A stretch of 64,000 nucleotides of DNA from Botryllus schlosseri. Its lineage: Eukaryota. Shown here in pieces: positions 1 to 55,500 of the stretch (its first letter is position 1; every line of letters starts with the position of its first letter). Under the pieces are notes generated by a model that saw only the letters and a program-made list of their open reading frames with translations, ran no database searches and was not told where the DNA came from. The stretch lies in assembly GCA_051294905.1 (NCBI GenBank), contig CM119371.1:19718001-19782000 (forward strand). Direction: 5' to 3'. Both the position numbers and the translations under genes were made by a program.

Positions 1-290
1 AATACAAGCAGCAATTACTACTAAATAAATACTAGTCCATCCTCAAGATTACCGGACCACGACCTGACCTGTCGAACTCACCTTCTATGACATGCCACTT
101 CATTTTTGTCGCTTGCTTTTCTATATTATCTTTTACTTTTCATTCAGTGTGCATGCCTATCCTCTTCACATTGCCTAGGCCAAGGTGGGTGTCTGACTCC
201 AAAGACTACTCCAAGTCGCTTCGACACCTTTCTATCTTTTCTTTGTATCGCATTTTTGCGGTGTATTTATCTGATAAAATTGCTAATAAA
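1..290 (+). mobile_element. 3' end of an L2/Crack-like non-LTR retrotransposon (last ORF2 codons + 3' UTR)
   Basis: Frame ending ...YKQQLLLNKY* at the window start, then a 3' UTR with hairpin ggtgtc...gacacc and AATAAA. Related 3' UTR copies at 13483-13531 (+) and 59885-60018 (-, with a TTGAA tail). Clade assignment is by recollection of typical ORF2 C-termini. Confidence 0.5.
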
Positions 291-1203
291 CTAGTTTCCA
301 AATTACACTGGGGCTGGGGAAACCGGAAAATCGAGTGTCTGAGTGGTTCAATTTCGAGTCGAATACGAATTGTGTCACTTTAACGTCATCAGAATAAGAC
401 TAACACGAAGAGTTCAAATATATGTCAGTCAACAGTGCGGTCCAATCACTGCTTCACAGACATGTCTTGTCTGTGAACTGAGCTTGACTGGCCAGTGGAC
501 ATGCGCAACACCGGTTTGTATAGACCAGAGGTCTCAAACTCAAATGTGCTCGCGGGCCAATTTCCTAATTTGTGATGACCCGCGGGCCGCAGCATCAATA
601 AATAGGGATATTCAATCTATAATATCCAACTAGGCCTTATTTAACGGCACCTTGCAGACAGGCATTCCATAACCACCGAGAAAATGTAATTTACTATTAT
701 ACTATTCACGCTTGGCACGAACAAATCAAATTTTCAAATATTTGAATAAAATTGTTTTTGTGCCGGGCATAATTTGTTAGAAATAATGAATTTAGACATC
801 ATGCGAGAGGACGCATGGTGATATCGTAAAAGCTGTCCGGTTGTAATATTGCAGCTATTGGTCCATTGAAATGTCGCAACTTTATGTAGAATATTTTAGA
901 ATTCACTAAATATTGATCTGATATCAGAGCATGTGAGCAGTGAAGCCTAATCGGGGTTTCTGATATGATTACCAGTGAACCCAGCCTTACAAACTCGGCC
1001 CTCGGGAACTTTTGTAATTAAGTGTATTACCAAGTATTATTATGAATTATTAAACCAATATTGTTATTATCAACAACTGATTTGTCGATCTTGTAAGGAG
1101 GTCAGGGCATGCGTAGATCACGCAGTCATTGAAATGCGATGCGTGCAGCATGTGCTGCCACATTGATTGTGGGATTACCACTGAACTCAGACCTCGGTGA
1201 ACT

Positions 1204-1525
1204 CAACCCTAATATCCCACCTCCACCAACCCTAATATCCCACCTCCACCAACCCTAATATCCCACCCCCAGCAACCCTAATATCCCACCTCCAGCAACC
1301 GTAATATCCCACCTCCACCAACCCTAATATCCCACCCCCGGCAACCCTAATATCCCACCTCCGGCAACCCTAATATCCCACCTCCCCCAACCCTAATATC
1401 CCACCTCCCCCAACCCTAATATCCCACCTCCGGCAACCCTAATATCCCACCTCCGGCAACCCTAATATCCCACCTCCACCAACCCTTATATCCCACCTCC
1501 GGCAACCCTAATATCCCACCTCCAC
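1204..1525. repeat. 23-bp minisatellite (caaccctaatatcccacctccac variants), continues at 5926-5990
   Basis: About 14 tandem units before the LTR element and about 3 after it. Confidence 0.95.
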
Positions 1526-2079
1526 TTTAACGCAGAGCGAACGTTTGTAGTTGTATAATTGTATATCTGACTCCAAGAAGGTTGCGTTTACAATTCGCTG
1601 CGTGTTTCTTCTTTCGTTCGACGGACCGGCTTACCACGCCGTACGACCTTGTTGGCTGACGTACCACCAAGCCTGTCTATTGCACACGTATTCGATGGAT
1701 CACACTGACGAATATATATTTTGTTTCCGTCTCCACGACTTGTAACTTTATTGAATGTCACGTACGGTTCAAAATGCAATATATTTTTCTCGCAATTGGC
1801 GAAGTACTTATGAATGTCTATTGACTTCCGAACCAGCTAATAATCATGAATGTATATCAACTTCCGAACCAGCTAATAATCATGAATGTATACATACACA
1901 CGTATATCTCGAAATGAACCCAACGTCGTACGATTTCCTATTTCGTTATCTACGTTCACACGACAAATTATACAACTCACAAAGGTCTTATCAAGTCTCA
2001 ATTCAGGGAATTACGTACGGTTTACCAACTCCTTATTAACCATTATTCAAATGGCGTTATACCAATATATTTCGTTAAA
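1526..2079 (-). repeat. 3' LTR
   Basis: Direct repeat of 5372-5925; internal 36-bp tandem duplication; AATAAA on minus strand at 1747-1752. Confidence 0.92.
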
Positions 2080-2080
2080 A

Positions 2081-2096
2081 GTTCCCCCTTCTTACC
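2081..2096 (-). other. Polypurine tract
   Basis: Minus strand GGTAAGAAGGGGGAAC, 1 nt before the 3' LTR. Confidence 0.8.
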
Positions 2097-3012
2097 AAAA
2101 AGAACTTGGTGTAAAAAAAACACGAATATATTGGTAAATATCTTATACCTAGGGTCATACAACATATGGACTGGGGCTAATCATAGGGACTGAAGCTAAT
2201 CCTAGGGATTGGAGACAGGAAACGATTTTATATGCAGGGGCAAAAGTAAACTAATGAAACGACATACCATCCAAGCGTGGCATTCGGAAACCCTATTTTA
2301 CATTACCACCTCGGAACGACTCGCAATATCATCGTTCCGTCCTACTGGCAACTGAAACTCAGATCAACAATAGTTAGCGTTCTAACAAAACAAAGAAATA
2401 AAATACATAATATAACCAGCACAAAAGCGTTACAACAGCGACATTAAAGGTCACTTCGCATGCACTAACAACAAATTAATGAAAATGTATAATAAAGAGC
2501 AACGAAAACTAGAAAATGCAATCCAACTCATAGACGAAACCAGTCTATATGCACTGACGAATGCCATCAACGTGTATGCAAGGTCAACACCATAATTCAT
2601 CCAGCAATCATGCTTCAAAACCCACAGAACATTCTATTCACTGTCATTCGCTTATACTACTTCTACTTTCTCATCATTACTGCTAACCCGTCCAGCGGGA
2701 AAAGCAATCATTCCTACCAAATCCGTGTTGTTCGCGCGCAACAACAGAGGGCTTATGGCAACTCAACGACAATTCTGCCGTGACCATCTCAAACATGACG
2801 CACCGTTCCGTGACCACAACCGGGCCTACACGAGACTAACATTTTGATGTTAGCATTTATTACTACAACGCATACTTCAGCAATGAGCTTCGGTGACCCC
2901 ACGTTACATTCTACGACGGGGAGTCACAACATGATGCAGCAATCCTGCATTTACATAATATATCAATGCACAAGGCACGCTTTTCACTACGCATATCTTT
3001 ATTCTACGCGAT

Positions 3013-3435
3013 TTAATGCAACACGTAATCATTCAAATGTCTTGGTCTAACAATTCGTCTCCCTCTGGACGTATACTTTGGGCTTGTCTCGTTGAGAGTT
3101 CTGCCTTCACTACATGTTTGGGTCATAGCGTTATCGTCCAAAATGGATTCATGCCCAGGATTATCGCGATCAACCTCAACAGGTAAGCTATCAGATATTC
3201 GCTCTCGAGCCGCGTCACTGATACTACCCGGACAGTCGCTACCGCTGTCATCATCACTAGACGACACTACACACGCGTCACCCGGAGTTACCGCGGAGTT
3301 TAGTACCCCTGTGTCCGCATCAACGGGCGGAAACTGCCGAACAAAGTCATCGAACATGTCTTTATCTACATCAAATGGCGGCAAAAGTAACAACGGTCTG
3401 TTTATGCAGACTACTGAAATACAAATCAACAACAT
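3013..3435 (-). pseudogene. Remnant of Gypsy Pol C-terminal tail
   Basis: Acidic/Ser-rich linker ending YTSRGRRIVRPRHLNDYV, like the TRSGRxVxxPxRLxDYV tail after Gypsy integrases; no integrase core upstream. Confidence 0.55.
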
Positions 3436-4106
3436 AAGGCGCTAAAAAAAAACACAAACATCACGTAATACCTCAAAACAGTACATACACCTTATTACGG
3501 CAACATTAAAGGATACATTACATAGGCATTCAAAAACCGATATTATTACTCGCACGCAAACTAATTAGAAAGATACTGTTATGGGTATTAAAAGGCCTAA
3601 ATTCACTTGCAATCATTTTATTCTAAATTGATACGAAACTTCCTAATTCATATCACGTAGCATTTAACATTGGCATATACCAACAGAACGAGAGTGTGCC
3701 CTATTTATTGTATTACATGCAAAGCACTGTTTGCAAATATCATGCACTACCGCGGTGCATATTTTCTCAATGATATACTCAAGATAAGGGTATCGTCGTA
3801 TGGCAGAGGCCTAATATCTCTTCATAAGGCTTGCAATATATCATCATTCATCACACATACATATCAAGCTATTCAGCTATTGGATGCATCATGGCATCGA
3901 ATAAATAGGGTAGCCTTCTTGCCACGGGTTTACCCGCACACATCTCTTATCAAAACATCATGCTATATAAGCACCTGCGTCCTACAGCTCTAGTAGCGGA
4001 GGATTTGACTCGCAGGAAATGCGACCCCTACCTGGGTTCAGAAACCAATGATTGCAAGTTACTCTACTAAACTATACTTTGTCAATATCCCAATAACAGT
4101 AACCAA

Positions 4107-4532
4107 CTAACGTCGTAGTGCAAGAAAATAAAATCGATCTACCTTACATTTTTCTACTCCGTGTGATGCATTAATCAGCGATTTCAGAGCTCTGGGGTTC
4201 ATGCCCGGAACTGCCTCGGCATAAAAGTTATTTAACTTCTGATTAATCGGAACCTCAAAACGGTCCAACAAAACTTTTGTAAGCAAATCGTAGCAATTAG
4301 GATCATGTGAGCTAGGAACACTTCCGTCAATAGCGTCGAATTGCGCGTCATTCAAGTTCCTCAGCAAAATGATATATTTAAATTTTTGCGACCGTATATT
4401 CTCGCCTTCAAGTTGACATTCTAACGTCATGAAATACCGTGCCGGGGCATTCTCGTTAAAAGGCCGATTGATGTTGATCTCGCGAGAGGTGAATCTATCC
4501 AGAGGTTCGCTGTCACTACTTTCCACTTCCAT
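4107..4532 (-). CDS. Truncated Gag N-terminal domain (DUF7041/CsRn1-type)
   Basis: ATG-initiated 141-aa ORF. RPFNENAPARYFMTLECQLEGENIRSQKFKY...NCYDLLTKVLLDRF follows the PPFWxxDPxxWFxQxExQF...KF...YDxLKxxLIxR pattern of Gypsy Gag. Its position after the PBS and 5' leader fits. Confidence 0.6.
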   Translation of the reverse strand: MEVESSDSEPLDRFTSREININRPFNENAPARYFMTLECQLEGENIRSQKFKYIILLRNLNDAQFDAIDGSVPSSHDPNCYDLLTKVLLDRFEVPINQKLNNFYAEAVPGMNPRALKSLINASHGVEKCKVDRFYFLALRR

Positions 4533-4964
4533 TTATGACAGTGAATAGCAATTGCTCATGCGAGAATTGAAAATGATTACCTTTTCGTTGCCCGTACACG
4601 CAAATGTCGCACTGCACACAGACGAAGATTCCGCAGCAAAAACAGCTCAGCTTCTAGCACGAATTATTGGCTATATCACTGAGAAAACAAAATTAAAGTA
4701 AGCCACATGGAATTTACACCGAAATACTAGAAATCTTCTACTTTTAATTTACTTATTTAATCGGAAATGGAATATTCATACCACAATACACATTTACAAC
4801 ATATCTCGATTCTCTGACATGACTCAAAGAATGAATTCTGATAATTATGCAGTTCAATACACACTCCACCGTCTCTGAAACCGAAATAAAATGCAAAGCC
4901 CTCTCCGGGAATGCTACTTCACTTCAAAATATGTTACAATCCTCCGTATCTTCTGCGCAGGCGC

Positions 4965-5320
4965 ACTTCGTTGTCAATTCTTCTTGCGAGAACGTCGCGA
5001 TGCCTTTTGTTGTCCGTCCTCGTCACTGATTGTTGATTGAACGTTCCCACCGTCGCCGTTTTGCAAGGCGAATCTTTATATTGATCGTTTCCGTGGTCCG
5101 TTGCTGTATTGCTCTTTCTCGCCGTCGTGCAAGGCGAATCTTCGATTGTCAATTCTTCTTGCGAGAACGTCGCGATGACTTTTGTTTCCGTCGTCGCTGT
5201 ATTGCTGATTGATCTTTCTCGCCGTTGTGTGAGGCAAATCTTTATATTGATCGTTCCCGTGGTCCGTTGCTGTATTGCTGTTTCTCGCCGTCATGCAAGG
5301 CGAATCTTTATATTGATTGT
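4965..5320. repeat. Imperfect modular tandem repeats in the LTR element 5' leader
   Basis: Recurring blocks gcaaggcgaatctttatattgatcgtt, ccgtggtccgttgctgtattgct and ttgtcaattcttcttgcgagaacgtcgcgatg. Confidence 0.85.
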
Positions 5321-5351
5321 CTTCGGTCGGCCGGTCGGTCTTGATTATTTG

Positions 5352-5370
5352 AACGTCGGAAGGTCAACCA
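5352..5370 (-). other. Primer-binding site, tRNA-Trp-like (imperfect)
   Basis: TGGTTGACCTTCCGACGTT versus TGGTGACCCCGACGT, the complement of the tRNA-Trp 3' end; 1 nt from the 5' LTR. Confidence 0.6.
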
Positions 5371-5371
5371 C

Positions 5372-5925
5372 TTTAACGCAGAGCGAACGTTTGTAGTTGT
5401 ATAATTGTATATCTGACTCCAAGAAGGTTGCGTTTACAATTCGCTGCGTGTTTCTTCTTTCGTTCGACGGACCGGCTTACCACGCCGTACGACCTTGTTG
5501 GCTGACGTACCACCAAGCCTGTCTATTGCACACGTATTCGATGGATCACACTTACGAATATATATTTTGTTTCCGTCTCCACGACTTGTAACTTTATTGA
5601 ATGTCACGTACGGTTCAAAATGCAATATATTTTTCTCGCAATTGGCGAAGTACTTATGAATGTCTATTGACTTCCGAACCAGCTAATAATCATGAATGTA
5701 TATCAACTTCCGAACCAGCTAATAATCATGAATGTATACATACACACGTATATCTCGAAATGAACCCAGCGTCGTACGATTTCCTATTTCGTTATCTACG
5801 TTCACACGACAAATTATACAACTCACAAAGGTCTTATCAAGTCTCAATTCAGGGAATTACGTACGGTTTACCAACTCCTTATTAACCATTATTCAAATGG
5901 CGTTATACCAATATATTTCGTTAAA
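5372..5925 (-). repeat. 5' LTR
   Basis: Direct repeat of 1526-2079 (offset 3846). Confidence 0.92.
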
Positions 5926-6639
5926 TAATATCCCACCTCCACCAACCCTAATATCCTACCTCCGCCAACCCTAATATCCCAGCTCCCAGCTTTAATTCAA
6001 AATTGTTCGGGGGCGGAATTCACCGAGGTCCATAGTATTCGAGAAACACCATGAATACCACAAAACAAACAAGTAGAGTATGTGAGCGTCGCGTTATCTC
6101 CCCCGCTTACTCAATCCGTGAATACAAAATTTCCCGAGGGCCGAGTTTCTAAGGCTGGGTTCACCGAGGGCTGGGTTCACCGGCAACCTTCTGATATACT
6201 AGTGATAAGTATAGGCTATTGTTACTGTCATTGCCAAAGTCAAATTAAGCCAGCGTTAAGTTTTCTTCGATTAATATTGGAACAGATCAATAACAACTTC
6301 ATATAATCATTATTGTTCCATAGTAATAGCATTGTTTCTTAACCGTTTTAGCGATCGTACCCCTTGTACTTTCAATTAGATTTCCAGTGACCCCTGTCGA
6401 TTTTCAGCACAATTTCTGATAATCAGACAGTCCATTCACATAAAACCGCGCGTAGCGTGAAGAATATCTTCCAGTTGAATAAATTGGCCCAGAAAATATT
6501 CCACAGCTTATAGGTCAATTTCCACAATGCATCAGGCACCCCCTATGGTGCTTTGTACCACGAAGGGGATACGGACCCCTGGTTAAGAACCCCTGGAATA
6601 GTAATGACTAATCGCGTAAGAATCCATTGGTGTTACAGC

Positions 6640-8241
6640 CAGAGTTGGATCAATTGTAATTTGTAATTGTAATTGAATGTAATTAATTACATTTTTCAAT
6701 GTAATTGTAATGTAATTGTAATTGGAGCATATTTATTTTGTGTAATTGTAATTGTAATTGTAATTTGACAAAAATTTTGCTCAATTACAATTTCAATTAC
6801 ATTAAATTGCTATTGAGACCTGACAAGCACAACATAAAACAATTGACTTATAATGCATTCTCTTACGAACGACAAGGAATTTGGTGGATCCATTCGCGAA
6901 GGCCATTGACCGCGCCCTTGCGGGCGAAGTTTATTTTTATTTTCACCGCTATGCTGGCCTCGGCTGCCATTCCATACAATTTTTAAATTACTAACCAACC
7001 GATGGATTCGCAACACGTGGCTCACGATTGAATACGCCGAGAAGCGAACTGCTGAGCCGGCTAAAAGCGGCAGAATTGATAGTCCCGTAGCTGGCGATCC
7101 AAGAGTCGAAATTTGATATGTATGGTCCTAATCGAAAGCTAGTGTCGCACTGATTCCGCAATAAAAGTATATTTCCAGGCAATGGTACCATCCCAAAATA
7201 GTTGTGAAAGTCTGGGAATCGGCATTGTTCTGAACAATCGCTATGGGCGTAACTGGTAATTGTTGTAGTCATGCTGGTGCAGCGCTCTCACTTTTCAGAA
7301 CAGTCCGCCTTAAACGGCTATTTTGGAGCAGTTACATTGCCCTGACGAGATTTTATTTTGTATTTTCGGAATTAGTACATCAATAGCTTACGATGAAGAC
7401 CAGATGCATCAAATTTGGACGCATGGATCGCCAGCTCTAGGACTATAAAGTTTGCTGGTTTTAGCCGACTTTTCAGTACGTTTGTCGGTGCATTCATCCG
7501 TGACTCACATATTGCGCATCTATCTGTGGGTTGGCAATCTACAATACGATTTCAGATCACGATGATGCATCGTTATTTCGTCTGGCTAACTAACCAGACC
7601 ACTGGATATTATATAACGTCTTATCTGACAAAGCACGGTTTTGTTTTTACTCCTCATCCTAATTCCTACGTCCCTCGATAAAAATAATATTCTTTCTTTA
7701 ATTATATACTATATACGCAAATACAACACATGCATATATTATAATACTTTTTCAACGACATACTGCACCCTATCCTTAATCCTAACCCATAGGAAATTAG
7801 GTAAATAACATTTTACATTTCCAATTACGTGAGCCATAATTACCTAGCACACAAAACACGCTTACATCACGTCACAGTGACATCTTACATAGCATACTAT
7901 GTACGCACATCAACGCAATTATTACTACACAATCTGAACTAGACTTGAATTGTTGTTAAATACGACGCTATGGTTGTCAAGGACCACGGTTGAATTTATG
8001 ACTATTCAATTACATGTTCAACAGCAGCAATTGTAATTGTAATGTAATTGATGCATGCAAGGAGTAATTGTAATTGTAATTGTAATGTAATTGATGCATA
8101 CAAGGAGTAATTGTAATTGTAATTGTAATTTGATATTTTTAGCATGTAGTAATTGTAATTGTAATGTAATTTAAACATTCATGGAAGTAATTGTAATTGT
8201 AATTGTAATTCAACTGAAATAATGTAATTGATCCAACTCTG
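6640..8241. mobile_element. Non-autonomous hAT element with (GTAATT)n subterminal arrays
   Basis: TIR cagagttggatcaatt / aattgatccaactctg; 8-bp TSD GTTACAGC (6632-6639, 8242-8249). Confidence 0.88.
6993..7535. mobile_element. Old MITE/foldback with diverged ~150-bp inverted arms
   Basis: 6993-7141 is an imperfect reverse complement of 7384-7535. Related fragments occur near 57540 and 58360. Confidence 0.6.
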
Positions 8242-9330
8242 GTTACAGCTGTGGTGCGTAGCACTACCTTACTCGCCACCGATGATAACATGGACAGAGA
8301 GAACAAACAAAATCCAGGATGTAACAAAATGTACGTCACGGGGGCCACAGAACGCCAATGGTTTCCATACAGACCTGATTCTATATACCCTACGCTACGG
8401 GCTTTTGATAAATTACTATTCCCCACGACAGCTTCCTAGATTTTTGCATCCGTAGAATTGCCAAATCACTATTCCGAGAGGCAAGTCCTTCTCTGATTTT
8501 TACGTTCGACCCTATACTCAACTCGAGTAATTTTTAGTATATCACTCAGTCAATCCAACATCGAGTAATTTGACGAAAGGTCGCACCAATTAAAATCACA
8601 ATTTTCAGCGACGAATCATCAACGGTTCATGTTTTATCATCAGGAACCTGAAATGTGACGAAATAGCGATCTTCCACCGCATGGTAGATTTTAGAAGTGA
8701 TGTGATAGTGAAGTAATTGTTTGGGTTTCCGGTTTTTGTAGTAGTTTTAGAGTGAAATTTAAGTTCCTAAATCTACAAAAAAGATATATGACACTAGAAT
8801 ATATTGTCGAATACTTGAAATTGAAAAATGCCTTCGCGGGCCGCACAAAATGTTCTCGGGGGCCGCATGCGGCCCGCGGGCCGCGTGTTTGAGACCTCTG
8901 GTATAGACGGATATTCCATTCAAGGTATATAAATTAGCAAAATGATAATCATCATTGATAAAATATATGTTGGGCATGAGGGTGTAAAGGTTAGGTACTC
9001 TAAAATCGGCTCTGACTGCTCAACTTGAATCATGAAAATTGATGCTCAGTTCGGATTTGAGTAGGCTACTATGAGTTTGTTGCGTTCCGAGATTTAACCA
9101 AAACAATAATTTCCTATTGTTAATTTATTCCCTAAAAGCTTTTAGAGTGTATCTTCAGTAATCGGATGAATCAAATTCCCAATATAGGATATAATTTGCT
9201 GTATGACCTAATATTATTAACAGAAGCAAACAAATCGTAGACACTGTATTAACGGCACACAATAAACCTTGATAAGTACTTATCTGATTATGAATGACCA
9301 GAAACAAAAACATTGTTCCATGAGTGTAGA

Positions 9331-9925
9331 GTAGGGTTATGACTAGAAAAAAATTCAAAATTTTGTGTGTCTTGTAGTCACAAACGATGAACTTTGTGTC
9401 CTGATTTCAAAATTAACAAGTTGAGACTGGTTAAACAAAACCTCTCGCACAAAAATTTTCCAGTTTTCACTGTATGAAGGATAGGCTTTTATTGTAGATA
9501 CAGATTATACAATATATATACCATTACCGACTTATTTGAATTTAACTGACACAATTCCAATTGCGAAGATTTAAAATAGAATTTTGGTAAATTGTGATTG
9601 CCCAGATTGAATTAATCCGATCGTTTTCTTGCTTACATACAATATTAAATAATTAATTATTAGTTTTTATTTTAGATGTAGACTGTATATATCGTATAAT
9701 TTCAATTTGCCTGACACAAATCCAACTGGCTGTTCGAAAAGGCGAAAGTAGAACAGCTCAACATATTTTCAGCGGTCTAGAAAACAGATTCGAGGAATTT
9801 GATGAAAATTTGAAAATGACATATCATACTTGACTCAGTATCTGGTGATACTGGGCGGCGGAATGTCGTCTTGAAACTGCAAATTGCGACGACGAGCAAG
9901 GGTTTTCATAAATCACAATACATTG
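9331..9925 (+). repeat. Dispersed repeat; uninterrupted paralog of 17980-23437
   Basis: Colinear with 17980-18124 + 18603-18827 + 23214-23437. Confidence 0.85.
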
Positions 9926-10384
9926 GTTGCCGACATAATTTTATCGATTCTTAAACATAGGCCTATGTCAGAGTTCTTCAATCCAACATCCTCCACAAAT
10001 CCAACTCTCAGCTACAAATTTGTAGATGATATGTTAAAACACTACTAAGCCATAATTTCAAGTAAAAATATTAGAAAACCGAGGATGGAGTCATGATTTT
10101 AAGTTTATCTATGTGCTGCGCAGAGCGTGCCGCTCTTTCAGAGAAAATAGTAGATTACCACTAATAGCATCAACTTCCATCTTCTACGCAATGCGAGATG
10201 GAGCTCAAGGGTATAATTCCATACTGCCAAGTCCCCAGATGGAGAGTAACTCTTGAGATATCATGCTGATTCATCGCAAATGCGTGCCAGGAAGCTTGCT
10301 ATTCTAACCAGGTGTCTATAGATGGAATATACTGTATCCCGAACTGACGATATCACACTTTTAAAGAATCATCAGTATCGGCCA

Positions 10385-10701
10385 TTGAAAGGACGTAGTT
10401 TTATTTTTGTCCTCGATATTTTTGCGGCATATACACGGACTCGTGATACACATAGCCTACACACGATCTGCACATATGCATATCATGAGTGAATGATTTG
10501 CATATGCCGCTGGACAAGGAATGGTGTAGATAATAGCCTTGTACGGCTTTCTAAGTCTTGCAACACCTCTCCATGCTATCCCAGTAATGCATGAGCGCCA
10601 AGCATTACTAATTAGGTCTTTGGTCTGACGCGGCCGGGGATCGAACCCACGACCTACCGATCAAAAAGCCGGACGCTTCACCATTACGCTATCTTGTCGG
10701 T
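10385..10701 (-). mobile_element. tRNA-derived SINE (family A)
   Basis: Minus strand A box TAGCGTAATGG and B box GGTTCGATCC, body ...cagaccaaagac..., tail ...actacgtcctttcaa. Paralog at 30595-30914. Confidence 0.8.
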
Positions 10702-11018
10702 TAAAAGCTGAAAATTATCGAGTACGAGTACAAGTAACGTCACGGATTTCTACTCGAGCACAAGTAGAATTACAAATTTCAAGACGTGCTACTACTTGAA
10801 GTATAGTAGTGCAATGTCTGAAATTACTTGAGTAGTTTGATGAAGAGCTTGAATCGTGATGGACAAAGGACAATCATTCGTGAGTATATAAAACGTTCAG
10901 AAATATCTGAAATTTTGAAATATCAAAGTCGAACAATATACAGATTAATAAAACTATAAGCTGTAGTGCCATTGCTGGGGATAAATCGCGCTGAGCGCGA
11001 AAACAATGTTCTATAAAC

Positions 11019-11976
11019 CAGTGTTGGGATGACTCGAGCCATGACTTGACTCGAGTCAGACTCGAGTCAACTTTTTCGCATGACTTGACTTGACTCGAGT
11101 CACTTTGGAAAAATGACTCGACTTGACTTGACTCGGAGCTTTAAAAATGCACATTGACTCGTGACTCGGAGCAAAATTTACGAGTCAATTTCAAGTCATC
11201 AAGTAAACGGTTCGAAAAAATCACTGTATCTTGTGTATGTTTGGATTGTTCGAGATACGCCGGTGTCACTTGTGAGAGCATCCAGTCACTCACTGATCGT
11301 ACGATACACTGATCCTCGATTGTTGGATCACAAATAAATAGACCGCAAACTAAAGTATCACAGCTTGCGCTGTCGAAGTAGTAGTAGTAGTAGTAGAAGA
11401 TTACTCTAAATAGCAATGTGTCTCTGTTTCTTAGACGGATCAATGCTTACGTTGCGCAGTGCTCACCTTTACCAACCTTTATGTATGATTTAAATCAAAC
11501 AAATATAGTTTGGGCGTTTATTTACTCACGGATGTATAGATGTTGATTATGTCCTATATTTTGGCTGATAATAACTGACTTTAGCATGTGACTGTACAGT
11601 TACTCACGTATTTTATTAACAGTTCTACGTGTGCGTGAGTGGCACAACGTCTTTTCGCAGGTATATTTAACTAGATATTCGTTATTTGATTCAAGATAAA
11701 TGATCAGCATTGATCAATTTATCTGTCTTTCACACAGCTAGCAAAGTGTAATGACTTTGAATCATCACTCATACATCGAAAATTCAATTTGACTTGAATT
11801 GTGACTTGACTCGTGACTTGACTTGACTTGACTCGAGTCACCTCCAAAAAACGATTGACTTGACTTGACTCGAGTCACTTTTGAAAATCGATTGACTTGA
11901 CTTGACTCGAGAGTCAAAATCTGCAATGACTCGAGATGACTCGTGACTCGAAGGTAGTGACTTGATCCCAACACTG
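11019..11976. mobile_element. hAT MITE with (GACTT)n/ACTCGAGT subterminal repeats
   Basis: TIR cagtgttgggat / atcccaacactg; TSD CTATAAAC (11011-11018, 11977-11984). Partial relatives at 23440-24781, 44600-44980 and 57270-57433. Confidence 0.88.
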
Positions 11977-12535
11977 CTATAAACTTCGGCTTCGCCCCCC
12001 GCCCCCTGCTGATGATTTCACGCCCCCAGTTCGAGAACGACTGCACTGAATTGTATATGCAATAGTATACATAGTATATTTTCTTGGTGATTGCTTTCCG
12101 AGCCGTGTGCAGCTTGAATTGCCTTGATGTTAGCGAAGCTTGCAGTTTCGTGTTTTTGTCATAAGACCGACTTCAATTAAAATCCTTAGTCTCGTCGACA
12201 TGCTCGGAAAAAACTAAAAGGAAGGGTATACCTCTGACTACAGTATACAAATATCCATTATCCAATGCTCTGAAGTCTAAACCTTCTTTGATTTTCAGTT
12301 TTTGGCTTTCTTTTTTTGGCATGCCCGTTAATCCTTTATGAGTGATCGATATGATGAGTCATATAGTAATCGACAGCACTGATTTACTCCTTTTACGAAT
12401 TAGGGATTTGGAAACGTATCACGTAACAATTTGAAACAAATACCGTATAATACGTAATGTAAAAATGGCAACAAAGAAGGTTATTTGAACTAAACTATAG
12501 GCCTAAGGAAAGAGTGATTTCTTGTGACTCTAATT

Positions 12536-22006: not shown

Positions 22007-23925
22007 GTCGTATCGTTATCTGACCATTATTGAGATTTGAGCAAAGGGTGATGCGAAGCTTGTTGTGCTTGAAGAAAGTGGACACGATCGTGGAAGATTC
22101 CTAGGAACGCTGAATGGGATACGCATCGTAAAAGGTACAGTACTACATAGTACTTGTTACCGTGAATATCTGCGACTGTGCAATGTGCACACCACTTTGA
22201 TTTCATGATTGAAATATTTCATTCTCCGCATTCTCTGTTCTATTTTGGGATACTAGTCGACTTATCTAGTGACCTGTGACACCACATACTCCGCCACGGA
22301 GGAGTTGAAACTGTTGGCTTGTTTATGTCATTTTCGGGCCATAGCATAGAGATGTTTTCATCCACTGCTGGATTTGTTTGGCACACATGCCACCTCATAT
22401 CCAGAGTGGAATTGGTGAGGATGAGGAACCTTTTGCTTCAATACATTGATAAAGTAAGTCATGAATCTCTGCTATATCATGTACAAGGCGGAGCCTTCAT
22501 CACACAATGTACCAGTACCGGTACTTCAAAACATGTTACCGTATATTTTTGTTTGCCTATTTGTCTTGGTAGTCTTTATAATGTCATGTCTAGGTTAGGA
22601 ACTTTGCTTTATATAGCGACTTACTCATGAATTCTTTTTAGTGGAACTGCAAGATACTAGTTACACAGAAGGAATGAGGAAGATAAAAAGAAACAATTGG
22701 AAGTTTCGCCGGTGGTGGAATTAATTCTCCTTTTCTTGCGACCGCTCGTGTTACTGCATGTCTCCTAAAGAAGAATTAGACCTCCAGCAGCAATTCTTTT
22801 CCATCGATTACCACTTCATCGTGATATCAAGAATGAATATACAGTTTCTTCCAATGTCGTTTTGGGAGTGTGAAGAAAATTTTGCGATATTTTAGCATCG
22901 GGTTGCTTTGCGATAGGTATGGGTGTACGTGAATTTACAAGCTGGTATGTATCCTGATTTGCAGGGACAGCATGTAAGTAGGTAGGTAGGTAGGTGGGTA
23001 GGCGGTCTCGGTCTCAAATGTACAGGAGAACATGTAGATTGGATATATCCGGAGGGGACTGTAACCGCTGTCTGTCGTGTAAAGTGAGATTACCGGACGA
23101 GTGTAAGTTGGATTTGCATTGACCAACGGTAATGTTAGATTACCACGAAATGTCTGGCTACCGTGCTTCCAAACATTTCGCGGTAAATCGAGGTTTTTAT
23201 TTTTTACAGTGTACTTTCAATTTGTCTCACACAAATCGATCTGGTTGTTCGAAAAAACGAAAGTAGAACAAATCAACATACTTTCAGCGTTCCAGAAAAC
23301 CGATTAGAGGAATATGATGAAAATTTGAAAATGTCATATCATATGTGACTCAGCATCTGTTGATACTGGGCGGCGGAATGGCGTTGTTGTGAAACTACAA
23401 ATTGCAATGATAAACAAGGTTTTTCATGAGCCACAATAGGTCAGACTCGAGTCAATTTTTCGCATGACTTGACTTGACTCGAGTCACTTTGCTAAAATGA
23501 CTTGACTTGACTTGACTCGGCCTATCATAAATGCGAATTGACTCGTGACTCGGAGCAAAATTCACGAGTCAATTTCAAGTCATCAAGCAATCACTGTCGA
23601 TGAAAATCCAGTATCTTGCATATGTTCGGATTGTTCGCGCAACGCTGGTGTAACCCGCGAGAGTGAGCAATCATTCAATGATCGTGCGTTTTACTGAGCC
23701 TCCATTGTTCTCTCACAAATATATTGATCGCAAACGAAGTGATCGAAGCTTACAACCTACGTTGTCGTAAACTATAGTATAGTAAAGTAATTTAATACCA
23801 AAATGTCTATTTCTGTTCTGTGTACTTAACTTAACAAAATCTATTGTTTTATTGCAATTGAATTCGAAAATACTTTACATAGTTATCAACCATTGGCGCA
23901 GGCTCGAATTGTATCATATCAATTT

Positions 23926-24378
23926 ATATATATATATAGGTCTAGCTCTGTCTGCGTTCAGACTTAGAGCACCATCACCGAGGTGATGGAAGCAGCCTAT
24001 CCATCAAAAAAGAGAGCATCAAAGATTTAAGTTATAAATTAAATTTCCCTTGAAAGTGCTGCTTTTGAGACTGTCCTGATGTCGGTGTCGTTCCGATTGA
24101 GGACATTGTTCATCAGCGTTGCGGAGGGTCTTCCTTTTTTCGTTCTCCTTTCATCTTCAAACGTTATTGAACTTCACGACACTGTCATTATGTTTTCGAA
24201 TTATGTGTGCAAGAAATTTAGCTTGTTGGTGATCAATGAATGCTGAAAGGCCTTCAGTGCGACAAATTCTATGAAGATTCTGATTGCTAATTTTGAATGC
24301 GCGATCGGTTCCCCTTCGAGTGTAGCCTCCGTTTGCAAAAGGGTAATGTATTGCATCTTATCAATTCGTTTCTCTATT
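23926..24378 (-). mobile_element. 5'-truncated RTE-like non-LTR retrotransposon
   Basis: Minus frame NGGYTRRGTDRAFKISNQNLHRICRTEGLSAFIDHQQAKFLAHIIRKHNDSVVK / TFEDERRTKKGRPSATLMNNVLNRNDTDIRTVSKAALSREI*, the typical post-RT C-terminus with GHIxR-like and RGRP-like motifs. Short 3' UTR and (TA)n tail. Confidence 0.7.
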
Positions 24379-26542
24379 CTCTATTTTGGCTGGTAACTGA
24401 GGCTGTGCAATTACTTACGTAGTTTATTGGTTCTACTTATATGTGAGCGATACAGCGCCTTACATCCATGTATATTCAACTCTACATTCCGTCATCTGTT
24501 CAAAATCAATGACCACTCAATCGGCATTTAAGACAGCTAGCAAAATACAATGACGTAATCACGCCTCATAACTCGAAAAGGCAATTTGACTTGAATTATG
24601 ACTTGACTCGTGACTTGACTTGACTTGACTCAACTTGACTCGAGTCATCTCCAAAAATCGACTGACTTGACTTGACTCGAGTCACCTTCGAAAATCGATT
24701 GACTTGACTTGACTCGAGTCAAAATATGTAATGACTCGAAATGACTCGTGACTCGAAAATAGTGACTTGATCCCAACACTGTTAGGATTTTTCTTCACGC
24801 TTCGCGCGTTTACTTGTCACACGATTTCTTGCTTTGTAGCCTAGGCCTACCCCCCTGAAAAATTTATCCGATTGAGTCCAACTATATTCGAATTACGAGA
24901 GAAAGTCTTTTCGTGTTTGCACTCGCAGAAAGATCGTCGACGATGAAATGTAGGTACAAAATGATTGTCGTATATTAGCGGAAATCTTCGATATCGATAT
25001 GTCCAGATGCCGAATAGTCATGTCCTTGCAAACTGAGCCCAGCGGGCGGTATACAGTCGACCCGCAATATACCCAAGTATTATTAATAACTTTGAAAATT
25101 TTACGCGCCTGGCGCGGCTAGTGGGCAGCACACTCGTACGTGGCTAGTGGGCAGCACACTCGTTCGTCAATTTCATGTGGCCACTTAGCTGAAAAGGTTG
25201 GCCACCCCTGGTCTATATAGATTACTAATTTACTTGTAGGTTAGTTATCTATAGTAATCTAGAGTCGGTGATGTCATAATGAATTGTTGTCAATTGTCGA
25301 TAGCATCATAGTTGCACTGGAACGCACTTTACTCCTTGTCATTTCTCCGTACAGTATCAAAATTTTGATGCGGCGTTTTAACACTGGCGCTGTACTCGTT
25401 AAAATTAAGCCATACAGCTCAATTCAATCTTTAAATAAGCGATTATTAATAAAACTGTAACTGTAGTAAGAGCAATATGGTCGGACACCACGACCTGATC
25501 AATAGAAATTCGATTTGTACCAAAAACCCAATGTTTTGACGTTCGATATTGGTGCACTCGTTCCGTTACCAGTCCATCCGAATCAGAACATCAAGAATGA
25601 ATTTACGAAACAGATGATTACAAATTGGAAATCGCGTATCAAATCAGTAATTTGTCTCCACCATAAAATAATATGGGGTCCTGACATCGCATTGAGTAGC
25701 TCGCACCGCGAAAATTGTTCGCTGAGTGTAACGGCGATTTAGGCTACTCTTCTGCCATCCCCTATTTACGCTAGAAAATCCTTACTGGAGTGAATGACGA
25801 TCATGCCCAGTAATGAATTCCAATTCGCATGCATAATTGCATACTCAATAGCACTGTCCAATTTCGCGGCCCGATTAAAGAACTATCACGAAAGAACGAA
25901 TATTTGCTCATCCGATTCATAGCAACGATGAGATGGAATTTTTCGGCTCCTGCCCGTCATATCGACAAGTGCAACGAAATCACATTTTTATCCTCTCTCC
26001 CATTTTGCGTAATATACAGTGATCGTTATTTTCAAACCGTACTATTGGCCAACAAGGTTGTGCTGATGACGAAGTTGCGGGTATGTCGAATACCCACAAT
26101 ATTCACTGGCACATCTAGCATACCGAGTTTCAGCACTCGTGTATGAAAATTGAACATTGAACATATGACTGCTCTGCTGTTAAATCCTCAGGAACATGGT
26201 TAGTCGAAAAAAGTATCGCCAAAGACGAAAAGATTGTTAATTTCGCGAAGGCCTGCTGTTGAATTATGTGAACTCAGCAGATATGGTTGTTGCATATATA
26301 ATAGAATCTTATGAAATGCGTCGGAGCCGGAGCTACCCCTCAAATATCTAGCTCCGGCTCCTGCTCCACCTCCGGCAAAAATGCACAGCTCCGGGTTCCG
26401 GCTCCGGGTTCCGGCTCCGGCTCCAAAGCCCTGCTCTGTACAATAAAGATATTTTGAAGCATTTTGGCCAAATTAGTTAACTAAATGTACCTGTATTTGA
26501 GAGTTACAGAATTGAATTGTAAGAATGTTTCTTCATCGTATC

Positions 26543-28417: not shown

Positions 28418-28490
28418 GCCTCGATGGCGCAGTAGGCAGCGCGTGAGTCTCATAATCTCAAGGTCGTGAGTTCGATCCTCACTCGGGGCA
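28418..28490 (+). tRNA. trnM-CAT: tRNA-Met (CAT), elongator type
   Basis: 73-nt cloverleaf GCCTCGA...TCGGGGCA with anticodon loop CT-CAT-AA and TTCGAT T-loop. It closely matches the metazoan elongator tRNA-Met. T5 Pol III terminator at 28493-28497. Confidence 0.96.
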
Positions 28491-39895: not shown

Positions 39896-41110
39896 GCCCA
39901 CATCGTTGAACTAAACTGATTCATTTTGAAATGTTCATTTCACGTGAAATCGAGATGTTCGCCAAAACATGTTTTTTAAAATATCATTCTTTCCTTTCTC
40001 AATGCGCTCAAATTTCGCCTGACTTCCACATAAAGCATCCTCTTACAAATAGGATTTTCTGCGAAAACACTGATACCAAAGTTTTCCCATGACTAACACG
40101 GTTGAAAGGCTATATATACTCTCAGCTGCGTCCAACTTACTGAATGTCATCAGTTTACGTTGAACCTACGCAGTAGGTTTATGCGCTGAGGAGGTCATGG
40201 TAGTCAAGTCGTCTTTGGTACTAATATAGAGGTAGTAGAAGCGCCGTAAACATTTACTTTAGTACACGTAGAAGTAGAGGTTTCCGAGCAAGTGAAAAAG
40301 TGAGTACTCTATTCGCCCTATTTCGCCTAAAAACCGAAAACTGTTAAGTAGAACTATATAGACCTATTCTACTATCCCAAGCACTTAAAAAAGTAGTGCA
40401 TTCTTGAGCACTCTAAAAAAGTATAGGTTCATCGGACTTCGGATCATGACTTTTTGGATCCGAATAAGAATCTGTTAGACAAAATCAATTCAGTAGAATA
40501 GGACTGTATTTTGACGTGAATGTGGCCATGCGCGACAACTGTCGGATTACCGACAAAATACTGTCCCACAGTCAAGGTCCGCCATAATAGATGTGTTCTT
40601 TTATGAACATTGTCCAGCTTATTGCCATTGTATTTTGTATATGTTGTTATGATATGTACTGTACACGTATATGTTGTACTTATGAGGTATACATTCTGAA
40701 GTGAAGAAGTGGTTGAATTTTGCGGCGTAGTTCCAGCAATGGAGATGGTACCTAAATGTATAGCAATTTCAGTATTGCTCTCCTCTTGTATGTTTAGAAA
40801 ACCAGAAACTTTGAACAGAGACTCGTCAGTCGCTCATCCAGGTCTTTTTAAGTCCCAATAAGCTATGACAGGAGGAACCAGATATGTCGTTGCAGAGCGC
40901 AAAGTTCCTTCCCACCGGCAGCGCTACAGTAGGGAATGTCATAGTTGAGCACTGATTAACCGGAATAGAGTACCAGAACAACCCAAAACGGCATGACACA
41001 TTTCTCATACCACATTCGTGTGATTACGGGTTTAATCTTGTTTCAGAAAAAACAAACCTTTGTGTGATTCCTGTCCTGCTGAAACGAAAATACTTATCCC
41101 GTAAATCTCT

Positions 41111-41405
41111 ATGGACTGTTTTGGCAACCTCAGTATGATTGGCATTACCTTGGCGTTTTCGCTGTCTTTGGTGGCGGCAGCTCGGGGACAGAGCGAATCC
41201 ATATGTGCAAAATTACTTGGCTTTTACCAAGCAACCTGTTCGCCCGGCGTAGAGGATGCTCTTACCATTGCTGTACAGGGCCCGCCAGGAGAACGTGGTG
41301 CGCGCGGTGAAAAAGGAGACCGGGGAAGTCCGGGTAGAACCGGTGTGTCCGCCGAAATTGACTACGGTCGAGTTGAAAGCATCGTATCAGGGATATTTGC
41401 GGAAG
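41111..41405 (+). CDS. ITLN: Intelectin coding exon 1 (signal peptide, Cys pair, collagen repeat)
   Basis: MDCFGNLSMIGITLAFSLSLVAAARG...GPPGERGARGEKGDRGSPGRTGVS...; donor GAAG|GTGAC. Confidence 0.85.
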
Positions 41406-44400
41406 GTGACTTTGGGCATATCGTCATACATTGGCAAACACCGAGCATAGATTTCAAATTCCAACCAGACACATAATCGGGGATTTTAACGGCGGAGGTG
41501 GTTAGCAACGAAATATTTCCATGTTTTCTTAGTGGGATACTTAAATACATTTGGTCTACTTACTAGGGATAGTGTGAACGTGAGGTTCACGTTCGCGCTC
41601 TGTGTGTGAACCTCAGAAATTTGGAGGTTCACGTTCAAAAACGAACCTTGGTATGCTCTGCAATGTGAACCTTTTCATACAATACAATTTTCCACGTCAT
41701 TTTAACATCTTTGGTTGAAATTCTTTGCATTTCAACGGCGGGCCACTATATGCATGGCGCTGGCAGCATAAAAAATCGACACCAAACGAGCGTGCACCTT
41801 GGCAATCTCAAATTTTTTACTTGCATGCTATGTTACAAAAGTTCGCTTGAAATATCCAGTTTTCCGTTTGTGAATGTTTAGGGACTCTGCTGTGAGCTTG
41901 ACCCGCAATCACGCAACATCAAGAGCAAAATGCGCTACAGGTAGGTAGTCAGCGAATGATGCATATTCAACAGATCAATGAAATCCATATAAAAAATACA
42001 TCGTTGTCTAATGTAAAAAAACTAGCAGGCGTATGGGGTCCATCTTGACTACAAATGTTTATTGTATCATAAAAACCAAATCCGTGTGATTAGGGTGTTG
42101 GCTATCTCTTGTATAACTTGTTAATGGGATAATATCGGTAGCAAGTATAGAAAGCCGTTTTACACTCTGCTCAATATCAATGTAAGGATACTCAGACGCC
42201 GAATACATATTCCGGTCTGGCGTAAGCTTATATTCTCTTGCAAGTCCTCAACGAAATTGTTGGCAAAGCGACTGCAGATGTTGATTTTATGGGATTATTA
42301 TATCATTTGTTTGCTCCAGTCGATACATTTGGCGACGACTAAAAAGTCAATATGTAGTATGTACTTCCCCATTGTTGCATAATGTGACCCGAGTTGTCGC
42401 TAGGTATGGTGCACACTGCACAATGCACAATCATATATCAAGTCACTGAAATCTAGGGTTGGAATTAGCAATATGACGTCACGTGACGTCATGAGGTTCA
42501 CGTGCGCGTTCATACAGAACCTTTCAAAAAAGTTCGCGTTCACACGAACCTGAACCTTTGAGAGGTTCACACCATCCCTACTACTTACCCTAATGATTAT
42601 GCTTTTGGACCATATACATTTCTACTTAACATTTTGGAAGGCAGAATTACCAACCTTTCATACTTACGAATTTGAAAACGTAGAATGTAGTTTAGCAGAA
42701 ACTTGCAGCACTTTAACAGCAACACTGACTACTTTGACTACTTCTGAGTTTACGTTATTGCCGGACAGGTATTCACATTCATATTTTATCCGAATTACAG
42801 ACTTCGGGTACGAATCAATTTGGTAAACGTATAGTAAGGATATGAGTTATATTGTATGTTCGTTCGCATGTTTTGACACGGTTCGTGTAACCCTGACGTG
42901 CTCCTACAATGCGTTACATTCCAGGTATGATTTATTCTGAAGTAACATATTCATTTCTCAAGTGATGACATTGGCCAGGGTCACTGTTAACAAAAACGCA
43001 CACGCTAGCTTTCTGCACTAAATCCGGAATCCAGGTGTGGAGACAGGTTCCGTTAGAATAAAGTATCAGCTTTTTCTGTTGTTCCGAATAAGCTTGGTAT
43101 CTATTTAAAGCTGTGGTGGTTCGCACATCTTTCATAATACGTACGCGTAATAGCCAATTCATAGCTATGTATGATCACGTAAACCATGGCGATGAAAAGT
43201 GACAATAATTTAGAGAAGGGAATTTGGAACTTGGAACATTGGAACTTGAATGACATGAATTGAAACCTGTGTCTTTCATAGATTTCATGACGGTCGGATC
43301 AATAGCACAACCGGCCTCCAGTTGCAATGAAATTAATCGAGTCAGCCCAGGAGCGGACAACGGACTCTACTATTTGCGGGATACGGAGGTAACGAACGAT
43401 ACGTCTTTTTTAAACTTTTTGTGTTTTGTTTTTCCGAAGATTATTTACAGCTCATCTGCTGAGCAATAATACGAAAGGGCGAATGCTATGCACATGTTGT
43501 GTTCCGCCTACAAACATTTAAAGTCCATGTTGTGGCAAATTGATAGAAATATCCTTGGCTCCGTTCGCGAAATTGCCAAAATTTTTAGGAGCCAATACGA
43601 ATAACCCGTACCCTAAAATATGGCGCAACCAATTGACAAACGTGACGCCTGAGCTTGTTGATAATTTTTGAGTGAGAACAGCGTTGTCATTGCAAGAAGG
43701 AATGCGTTGTTTTGATTGATTGCGTTAACAATTATGCTGTCACTTAGCCTCCGACGACTATAGTCTATAAGCACGAGTGTCTTTAAGCTGGGATTAGGAA
43801 GTTATAAAGCAGTGGCTGGCGTCATTCACAAAACAAAGTCTGTTGTATGATTTATCCGCAGACAAATCATGAAGGCAATTACCGCAATTACGCGGGTAAT
43901 ATATGATCAATGATCGTTCATCATTCATCATAAAACTGTAGGTTACTATTACTGTGATACTGGTGGTGAATCCGCAGGCAGTATATTTGAGTACGCCAAT
44001 CGTAAATGGAACAACTGTGAAGTTCATTTCACCGACCTATCTCGATTATTACCTCCGTTGACCAGAGGTGGTCAGTAACGAAGTACTTCTACTTTTTGAA
44101 GTACTTGAAGTAGATTTTGCCTACTCACACTACTTTTTAAGTAGTTATGATTTAAGACTACTTCTACTTCTACTTGACAGTTTTCAGTTTTGTAGGCAAA
44201 AATAGGCGTAGAATACCTACTTACTTACTTGCTTGTGAACCTCCACTCCTACTTCTACTTGAGTAGCGACGGTGACTACTTTGACCACCTCTGCCGTTGA
44301 CTGGAATAGAATAAAATAATGGCTGTACATTGTGTACAACCAAGGGCGTAGAAAACATGACAATTCCAAGGGGGGAATTGACTCGCCCTGATGTTACTCA

Positions 44401-53787: not shown

Positions 53788-54384
53788 TTAACACAGTAAC
53801 AACTCCACACAAAGACACTCCAAGACCAACTCCAATCCAACTACATATCTACCAAGAAAGACTAACTCAATCCTTTTCGGTATCACGTATGATTGTTGGG
53901 TACTAATACGACAACATACAATCTTTCGATTGGGCTTAACAATGGGCACCATTTTGCCAGCAACACTTATACACTCGTCTCTCGCGTATAATACCACGTC
54001 AAAATCGCGAAGAGCATCAAGGCCCAAAATACCAACAGGAGTGCCGAGTTTAGCAACGTTAACAGCCATTTCTTTACACACATCATTAATACAAAGCTTT
54101 AAGCACAATCTACCAACAACGTCTAGCTTGTAGCCATTTGCCACAGTAAAGTCTCTCGTAATGGGCTCCAACATATTCCAAGAATAACCCAAAATATCAA
54201 AAAGTTCGACGCTAATAAACGTTTCGGGACTACCACTATCAATCAAAAACTGGAAAAAATAACCATCAACACCAATACTCGCATACCAGTTTACCTTTAA
54301 ATCAAGCGCACAAATCAACTTCTCCAAGTCAGGGGCATACCAGTCAGGTGCCAATTGTTGGTCACCTATCGTCTCTCTAAAAAA
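53788..54384 (-). CDS. Gypsy-type aspartic protease (pol 5' part), in -1 frame relative to gag
   Basis: FLIDSGSPETFIS active-site motif, VANG flap, GILGLDAL. The frame is open from the slippery site at 54378-54384 and ends before any RT. Confidence 0.85.
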   Translation of the reverse strand, partial: FFRETIGDQQLAPDWYAPDLEKLICALDLKVNWYASIGVDGYFFQFLIDSGSPETFISVELFDILGYSWNMLEPITRDFTVANGYKLDVVGRLCLKLCINDVCKEMAVNVAKLGTPVGILGLDALRDFDVVLYARDECISVAGKMVPIVKPNRKIVCCRISTQQSYVIPKRIELVFLGRYVVGLELVLECLCVELLLC

Positions 54385-55145
54385 TCCTTCGGAGCAGTAG
54401 GCTGTTCGGTAGAGGTGTTCCTTTGACCAATCCCGTCATTCATATTATCGTTTGGAAGTATTTCCCTGCATTCATCCTCCCAGTGTCCATTTTTCCTACA
54501 TCGAGCACATACAGGCACACGGCAGAACTTTGCGGAGTGACCATACAATCCACAATGGTTACAATTACCTTGGAACCGTCTTCTGTGACCGTAGCTGTCT
54601 TGCCTACGCGCTGTAGAAAATTTCAATTCCTCCATCTCCTTTGAAAACATATTCTTCAGTTGCCTCATTTCATTTTCCAAGTCGGCTACCATCTTTGTAA
54701 ACTCAGGTTTTCCACCAGACGTACAACCGTCACTGCATGTCTTGCCTGTCGCAATCGGAGCAATCATGGGTTTACGTAGCACTGAGGACTTTGTAGTTTT
54801 AAGAACATCCAATACATCTGTTGCTCGGTCAACCAGGTCCCATAGCGAGGCTTCTTTGTTTTCAATCGACAAGGCCAAGGCAACGCTTGCATCTCCATAG
54901 CCCGTAGCAAATTGTCTTTTAGTCAAGCTCTCGACTTCCATTTGGTCACGCCCAGGAAACGCCTTCCTCGCCAACTTCTGTAGTGCGATAGCGAAATCAG
55001 CAGGAGACTCCTGAAGGTTTTTCTCCCGAGCATGAAATTCACGAACATAGTCCTTCTCGTGGGTTGATTTACCCAATCGTTTCTTCAGATGCGACACCAA
55101 CTTGTCATAATCGCGACGATCTTCTTCTTGTAGTTCTAAAGCCAC
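54366..55145 (-). CDS. Gypsy Gag (5'-truncated): capsid-like region + two CCHC zinc knuckles
   Basis: DYDKLVSHLKKRLG, ESPADFAIALQKLARKAFP, QFATGY, CNHCGLYGHSAKFC and CARCRKNGHWEDEC. Confidence 0.88.
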   Translation of the reverse strand: MALELQEEDRRDYDKLVSHLKKRLGKSTHEKDYVREFHAREKNLQESPADFAIALQKLARKAFPGRDQMEVESLTKRQFATGYGDASVALALSIENKEASLWDLVDRATDVLDVLKTTKSSVLRKPMIAPIATGKTCSDGCTSGGKPEFTKMVADLENEMRQLKNMFSKEMEELKFSTARRQDSYGHRRRFQGNCNHCGLYGHSAKFCRVPVCARCRKNGHWEDECREILPNDNMNDGIGQRNTSTEQPTAPKDFLERR

Positions 55146-55500
55146 ATAGTTCTAAAGTCACATATGTATCGTATTCCATGCGTCGGGGCAACGGCATTTA
55201 CTGGAATGATTTCTGCTGTTACCGAGTACTGACTATACTTATGATCAAATATCGTATGGTCGAAAAAGAATGGAGGTGTCATACCTTATAGACTTATGTG
55301 AATCAACCACGTCGCGTATCAGTTATAAATCTGGGAAATATCATACCATTAAGTTGACACTGTCGTGAGATGATAACTGGATGGTCGTTCATCCATTAGA
55401 CATCTCAAACCACCACCAGTCGAGCAGAAGTATACTTAGTTACTGATCACCCCGTCTAATTGAAGTATTAATTTATCAAAGATGTTTCCTCTAAAATCTA

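Follow-up and report, generated by a model that had tools for sequence, protein, structure and literature searches.

Of the features that retroviral-type integrases recognise, none is more conserved than the 3′ CA. Reportedly, i.e., going by the titles of two studies, the U3 end of Rous sarcoma virus does not require it. The described systems closest to the locus studied here are the CsRn1-like elements, long terminal repeat (LTR) retrotransposons with published ends TGT…AAA or TGT…ATA and with the motif CX2HX9CX3C (CHCC) in Gag as clade signature (PMC2582038). The consensus of the clade's U5 end is MSYYAMA (PMC3601003, Table 3). Here, we compare with these systems an element at positions 1526 to 5925 of a 64,000-nt stretch of the Botryllus schlosseri genome (GCA_051294905.1, contig CM119371.1, 19,718,001 to 19,782,000, forward strand), which we call the window. 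It is a young non-autonomous Gypsy-type LTR retrotransposon, CsRn1-like. Its TT…AA termini seem to be a genuine trait of the family, i.e., a small new variant of CsRn1-like ends. Its absent target site duplication (TSD) is a fact of this single site for which explanations are known, most likely a one-off faulty insertion.

Further precedents concern the ends and the TSD. Terminal repeats of about 7 bp are normal in LTRs (PMC3601003), and Saci2 elements combine TGT…ACA ends with a 4-bp TSD (PMC12471100). In reverse transcription, each LTR receives the same U3 and U5, for which the plant element TARE1 is a precedent: one end change spread to hundreds of copies, and normal TSDs were kept (180 intact copies with TSD, 12 without; PMC3701649). 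For the non-canonical LTR ends of lotus, the second letter is described as always a purine (PMC9804982).

Structure and assignment of the element

The features of the element are as follows.

1526 to 2079, minus strand: 3′ LTR, 554 bp, TTTAACG…CGTTAAA
2082 to 2093, minus strand: polypurine tract AAGAAGGGGGAA, 12 purines, 2 nt before the 3′ LTR
3013 to 3441, minus strand: 142-codon open frame, a lead only, resembling the C-terminal tail of a Gypsy pol
4107 to 4532, minus strand: truncated gag, 141 aa, DUF7041 (PF23055), stopping before the CHCC motif
4959 to 5308, no strand assigned: tandem duplication of 166 bp in the leader, from repeat detection
5356 to 5370, minus strand: primer-binding site TGGTTGACCTTCCGA, 1 nt after the 5′ LTR, CsRn1 tRNA-Trp-like
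5372 to 5925, minus strand: 5′ LTR, 554 bp, TTTAACG…CGTTAAA, with AATAAA at LTR position 328 and an internal 36-bp tandem repeat

The two LTRs are confirmed as a pair that differs by 2 substitutions (99.6% identity). A first-pass annotation of this DNA had described them as beginning with TTTAACG and ending with CGTTAAA, and all four termini indeed do so. The inverted repeat is perfect over exactly 7 bp and ends at position 8, for which base composition gives a chance of about 8e-5. The element lies on the minus strand, a point absent from that annotation. The LTR pair with short inverted ends, the primer site, the polypurine tract and the gag are the features of a non-autonomous Ty3/Gypsy-type element. 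TG…CA ends and a 4-6-bp TSD are both missing, and published exceptions exist for both.

With regard to coding capacity, the gag frame (4532-4107) matches DUF7041 with 29.1 bits against a cut-off of 28, and gag clusters are among its Atlas matches. A full HMMER search of 1.84 billion representatives returned four gag relatives; DUF7041 as well as CX2HX9CX3C are present in 4/4 of them. The literature searched by name held no mention of DUF7041. The frame 3441-3013 seems, by its motif, to resemble a pol tail. Its Atlas matches, which fall in integrase C-terminal families at 0.76-0.81, are weak, with recognition below threshold, and the protein search found no homologue of it. In six frames, no reverse transcriptase or integrase core motif stands out.

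The first-pass annotation had also proposed looking for an autonomous partner with an integrase, and neither the protein searches nor the gag profile scans brought one to light; the scans of viral contigs gave 22 and 95 pattern matches, of which 0 were confirmed. Since the U3 end and the TSD fail the features of the clade and pol is not placeable, we call the element CsRn1-like only and do not class it as a clade member.

Neither a second LTR copy nor a second minisatellite of the kind described below was found elsewhere in the window. An Rfam scan of positions 1-12000 gave 5 matches, all far below gathering scores. Self-priming of the Tf1/sushi type was considered and rejected: the pairing of the primer site with the element's own LTR is matched by 30-115 of 300 shuffles.

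Terminal letters and other copies of the family

The first-pass annotation had argued that a symmetric change at all four LTR ends is not random decay. This stands insofar as diverged copies (86-89%) align through the AA. The count of four does not: because reverse transcription spreads one U3 and one U5 to both LTRs, the four odd ends need at most two changes. Moreover, the U5 AAA is of a known, CsRn1-like type, and therefore the new feature is one letter, i.e., G>T at position 2 of U3. The proposed integrase with altered end specificity is affected in the same way. That is, tolerance of AA-3′ is plausible, but such a tolerance is largely known from CsRn1-like TGT…AAA elements. No LTRs with TT…AA ends were found in the literature; the search terms depend on punctuation and are a weak test, and its scope ended before the termini supplements of PMC2582038 and 10.1101/137141, Repbase and Dfam.

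To compare copies, contigs of 4 runs were aligned to positions 5300-6250; 17 runs contain part of the region. The observations below refer to the 32 pieces listed of 12,886, to 40 listed variants (37 further rows), to 24 listed loose ends (534 further) and to 15 of 18 joints. The LTR is covered by many contigs in which the same differences recur, so it represents a diverged multi-copy family. Eight of the 32 listed pieces reach 5923-5925. Three of these (records 6, 16 and 30, each from a different run, with 86-89% identity) follow the present copy through 5925 and have other letters beyond it, and a fourth listed piece (record 22) stops exactly at 5925. The three pieces aligned to 5925 most likely carry AA, judging from the alignment ends, since a local alignment would normally not cross a mismatch at 5924 for one more match. 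At the other LTR edge, a piece from X16 (record 17) spans the U5/primer junction with 2 substitutions, both at 5347-5348, and 5 gap letters that are unplaced. The 40 listed variants include neither 5373 T>G nor 5924 A>C.

Around the primer site, records 9, 17 and 25 (5300-5400) have 4-5 gap letters relative to this copy, and the three extra primer-site bases of this copy may be variable across the family. DNA pattern scans for other copies in genome contigs gave 0 and 0 matches. Those of viral contigs gave 0 matches for the other LTR end and 0 for the minisatellite. Pattern matches in metagenome contigs (2 loci) and viral contigs (6) were rejected as unrelated, the match being limited to the pattern or to 28 nt.

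The insertion site

The element sits in a tandem array, itself part of a larger host repeat.

975 to 1016, plus strand: left inverted arm of the host repeat, 42 nt, 95%
6123 to 6164, minus strand: right inverted arm of the host repeat, paired with 975 to 1016
1204 to 1525, no strand assigned: left part of a 23-bp minisatellite, 14 units, within an older high-copy repeat
1509 to 1525, plus strand: left 17-bp flanking copy TAATATCCCACCTCCAC, a partial array unit ending in CCAC, the same 4 nt that follow the 5′ LTR on the side of the primer site
5926 to 5995, plus strand: right remainder of the minisatellite, 3 units, opening with the right copy of the 17-mer (5926-5942)

When lengths of 3-44 are considered, the 17-mer at 1509-1525 and 5926-5942 is the sole exact duplication at the LTR boundaries. 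The earlier description of this site, i.e., a 17-bp repeat on both sides in place of a 4-6-bp TSD, thus holds over the lengths tested. The same applies to its remark that the repeat is equivalent to a loss of 6 bp (CAACCC): as the flanks are a 23-bp array, a gain of 17 bp and a loss of 6 bp are indistinguishable. The match of the two 17-mers favors a duplication only mildly because 5/16 other array units have the same 17-mer. The host repeat that holds the array is very abundant in the aligned runs, and the depth there is no copy number. None of the 32 listed contig pieces bridges the junction 5925|5926, which thus rests on this assembly alone.

The host repeat itself (930-1525 and 5926-6250) has sub-terminal inverted arms and the 23-bp array at its center; presumably, it resembles Helentron-associated non-autonomous elements. 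Its part 6030-6072 is common to another repeat at 34462, 39629 and 60367. The last array unit (5983-5995) ends in …CCAGCTTTAA; these letters closely resemble the left junction …CCACTTTAA (1521-1530) as well as the U5/primer end of the cDNA. A duplication of about 70 bp ending at the array-terminal TTTAA was rejected, as 4 substitutions and 2 extra bases distinguish the three left units from the three right ones.

A proposed one-ended insertion and its rivals

On the side of the primer site, the direct repeat is 4 nt longer than the LTR (CCAC, 1522-1525 = 5368-5371), which the first-pass annotation does not mention. That is, on the element strand the U5 flank opens with GTGG, the same letters as the primer site. 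This 4-nt match to the primer site is the maximum and is reached in 2/23 array phases; on the polypurine side there is none. A flank that matches the first primer-site bases marks integrase-independent insertions of Tf1 and HIV-1, the far end of which is usually lost (PMC11042837). In retroviruses, one-ended integration with the second end joined by the host leads to wrong-length duplications or deletions (PMC5041404), and for XMRV, 2/15 sites were off-length (PMC2857682).

Because both ends are exact and one microhomology is present, we prefer a one-ended faulty integration that was finished by host repair, of an element likely copied in trans by a CsRn1-like helper with a DDE integrase that would accept AA-3′. 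We give this reading a tentative probability of roughly 45%. The U5 …AAA would be inherited from CsRn1-like ancestors, and the TTT of U3 would go back to a single G>T change, carried into both LTRs by reverse transcription. The helper that copied the element in trans would have an ordinary DDE integrase, which we infer to accept AA-3′. This integrase would have joined one cDNA end, most simply U3, as that junction is without microhomology. The other cDNA end, with GTGG as copied primer-site tail, could then have annealed to a GTGG of the array, and host enzymes would have joined the annealed end, leaving the 17-bp duplication or the 6-bp loss.

Several observations weigh against this. The 4-nt primer-site match has a chance of about 9% of being a coincidence. 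Experiments with mutated ends would, in the simplest case, lead one to expect the microhomology at the altered end, which is U3, whereas it is at U5. The aberrant duplications in the literature usually comprise hundreds of bases, often with a truncated viral end (PMC5041404); this copy has a short 17-bp duplication and both ends intact. The primer site fits the Trp motif only with three insertions, and protein word-index searches found neither an autonomous helper nor an integrase, which is weak evidence of absence. If the boundary is placed differently, a TTAA duplication results and the array is exactly back in phase. With regard to other copies, the 37 further variant rows include every A>C row from three of the runs and, for each run, one or more T>G rows, such that a TG/CA subfamily may be among the copies. 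The alignment of record 1 of X1 breaks off at 5374, with 34 letters remaining, and that of record 13 of X12 at 5917. According to these two, copies with other terminal letters exist, and one piece may have another U5 end. Finally, none of the 24 listed loose ends lies at the LTR tips, and the insertion is seen at one site only.

The strongest competitor, though unlikely, is that a normal insertion with a 4-bp TSD was altered later, be it by recombination or gene conversion between copies or alleles, by a small deletion or by an assembly join in the array. TARE1 provides the precedent, as 12/192 of its intact copies are without TSD and are read as recombinants, i.e., at a few-percent level (PMC3701649). 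The site is suited to such events, being an unstable array within a very abundant repeat, and no listed contig bridges 5925|5926. However, slippage by whole units keeps the phase, so that a non-unit change exactly at the LTR edge is needed, and no 4-6-bp duplication is present at the true ends. LTRs of 99.6% identity leave little time, and the chimera version needs two insertions in the same minisatellite family. Less probable still, we think, is a capture wholly independent of integrase, in which host repair would have joined the cDNA at a break of the array, with annealing of the primer-site tail at GTGG and a loss of 6 bp. Homology to the primer site that directly follows an intact U5 is the signature known from Tf1 and HIV-1 (PMC11042837), here over 4 nt. 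Such events usually truncate the far end (PMC11042837), but the U3 end here is exact and free of polypurine letters or homology, as integrase processing leaves it.

A different rule of the whole family is slightly more doubtful than such a capture. It would consist either in CG…CG ends with a TTAA-specific 4-bp duplication at TTTAAA or in an altered integrase that makes long or no duplications, maybe with minisatellites as target. Moving both boundaries 5 nt inward indeed yields a 4-bp TTAA duplication and CG…CG ends. The LTR tips (1526-1530, 5921-5925) overlapped on TTAA give TTTAAA, i.e., the 6 nt missing from the 23-bp phase, which by chance is expected in about 1/23. The …CCAGCTTTAA at the end of the array's last unit and the lack of a TT…AA LTR in the literature searched point the same way. 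Against the TTAA version, TTTAAA is found at that position in 0/16 array units and precedes 0/5 listed joints into 5926, and TTTAA/TTAAA also occurs at the inner ends; there it is separated from the primer site by 1 nt and from the polypurine tract by 2 nt, as expected of LTR ends. As to minisatellite targeting, no joint of an LTR end with the array is among 15 of the 18 joints, which is weak evidence against it, and the 73 letters of record 30 beyond 5925 do not fit the array and may be an inner junction. A Gypsy integrase that joins AA-3′ at both ends and throughout the family works without a random 4-bp TSD, be it TTAA-specific or routinely one-ended via the primer-site tail and possibly favoring minisatellites, is improbable to about the same degree. 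That the locus is no retroelement is hardly credible, be it a KolobokP-like composite DNA transposon, with its long direct repeats, or an element with a tyrosine recombinase. Its direct repeats would be bounded by TTAA and the ordinary TSD is absent, but gag, primer site and polypurine tract follow the order of an LTR retrotransposon. The ends are not RR…YY, there is no transposase or recombinase frame and there are no split or inverted repeats, which largely refutes it.

The undescribed integration system that the first-pass annotation had suspected has no support here and a low probability; the junction fits a known aberrant one-ended insertion. Nor does one copy lend positive support to a long TSD across the family, to an integrase-free route or to minisatellite targeting.

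If only the ends are odd, the locus is a modest extension of known CsRn1-like ends. If a multi-copy family does have AA-3′ at both ends, it would offer a natural variant with which to map the integrase residues that read the dinucleotide. On the practical side, TT…AA elements can escape LTR finders that are set to TG…CA. It would matter far more if other copies were also without normal TSDs, as this would point to a natural family reliant on host repair or to a new target rule.

Other features in the window

A second retroelement remnant is located on the minus strand at 53788-55151. It comprises a gag-like frame, in which there are two CCHC knuckles, and after it a frame for an aspartyl protease (Pfam below cut-off); no LTR pair for it was found in the window. 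The 491-bp inverted repeat 19749-20239/21516-22006 (97.8% identical, with inner inverted pieces) is a young fold-back or MITE-like element. Exon-like frames are present at 41105-41476 and 45279-45752, one of which is a short collagen repeat; one stretch, without Pfam match, we take to resemble intelectin. ARAGORN reports a tRNA-Met (CAT) gene at 28418-28490. Beside these, there are AATTGT-rich arms in inverted orientation (6652-6765, 8029-8210) and a repeat family rich in GACTCGAGTC/TTGAC, with several copies (11030-11950, 23444-24780, 44700-44980).

Comparison with known systems

Tyrosine-recombinase retrotransposons of the DIRS/Ngaro type have inverted or split direct repeats and a recombinase gene. 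The element has neither, and this assignment was rejected. With KolobokP (PMC9587614), whose long direct repeats lie within a TSD of TTAA or of 3-5 bp, it has long direct repeats in common, and the TTAA reading only if its ends are redrawn as CG…CG. Unlike KolobokP, it lacks RR…YY ends and a DDE transposase and has a gag, a primer site and a polypurine tract.

With regard to the junction, aberrant retroviral integration (avian sarcoma-leukosis virus end mutants, HIV-1 with inhibitors; PMC5041404, PMC2857682) likewise combines one exact end with a duplication or deletion of wrong length. In contrast, the present case is an endogenous retrotransposon with 17 bp and both ends intact. Integrase-independent Tf1 insertions (PMC11042837) also have a U5 flank equal to the first primer-site bases, which here extends over 4 nt only. 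They differ from the present copy, which shows no match on the polypurine side and no truncation of the far end.

As to the ends, the non-TGCA LTR elements of plants (TARE1, Tos17, lotus groups; PMC3701649, 10.1101/137141, PMC9804982) share non-canonical ends that reverse transcription made family-wide. They are described as mostly Copia, with a purine at position 2 (lotus) and a normal 5-bp TSD (TARE1), whereas the element is Gypsy-type with T at position 2.

Within Ty3/Gypsy, the CsRn1 clade (CsRn1, PwRn1, AgCR1-14; PMC2582038) has the U5 …AAA and the polypurine tract before the 3′ LTR in common with the element. A Trp-like primer site may be a further such feature: under one reading, the CsRn1 tRNA-Trp motif agrees with the primer site in 12 of 12 letters, provided that three inserted bases are allowed. 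The CHCC motif is present in the gag relatives of the element (4/4), whereas its own gag stops before it. Relative to the clade, the element is without 4-bp TSD and without pol core. It starts with TTT, not TGT as in the clade's TGT…AAA/ATA/ACA, while its U5 AAA fits.

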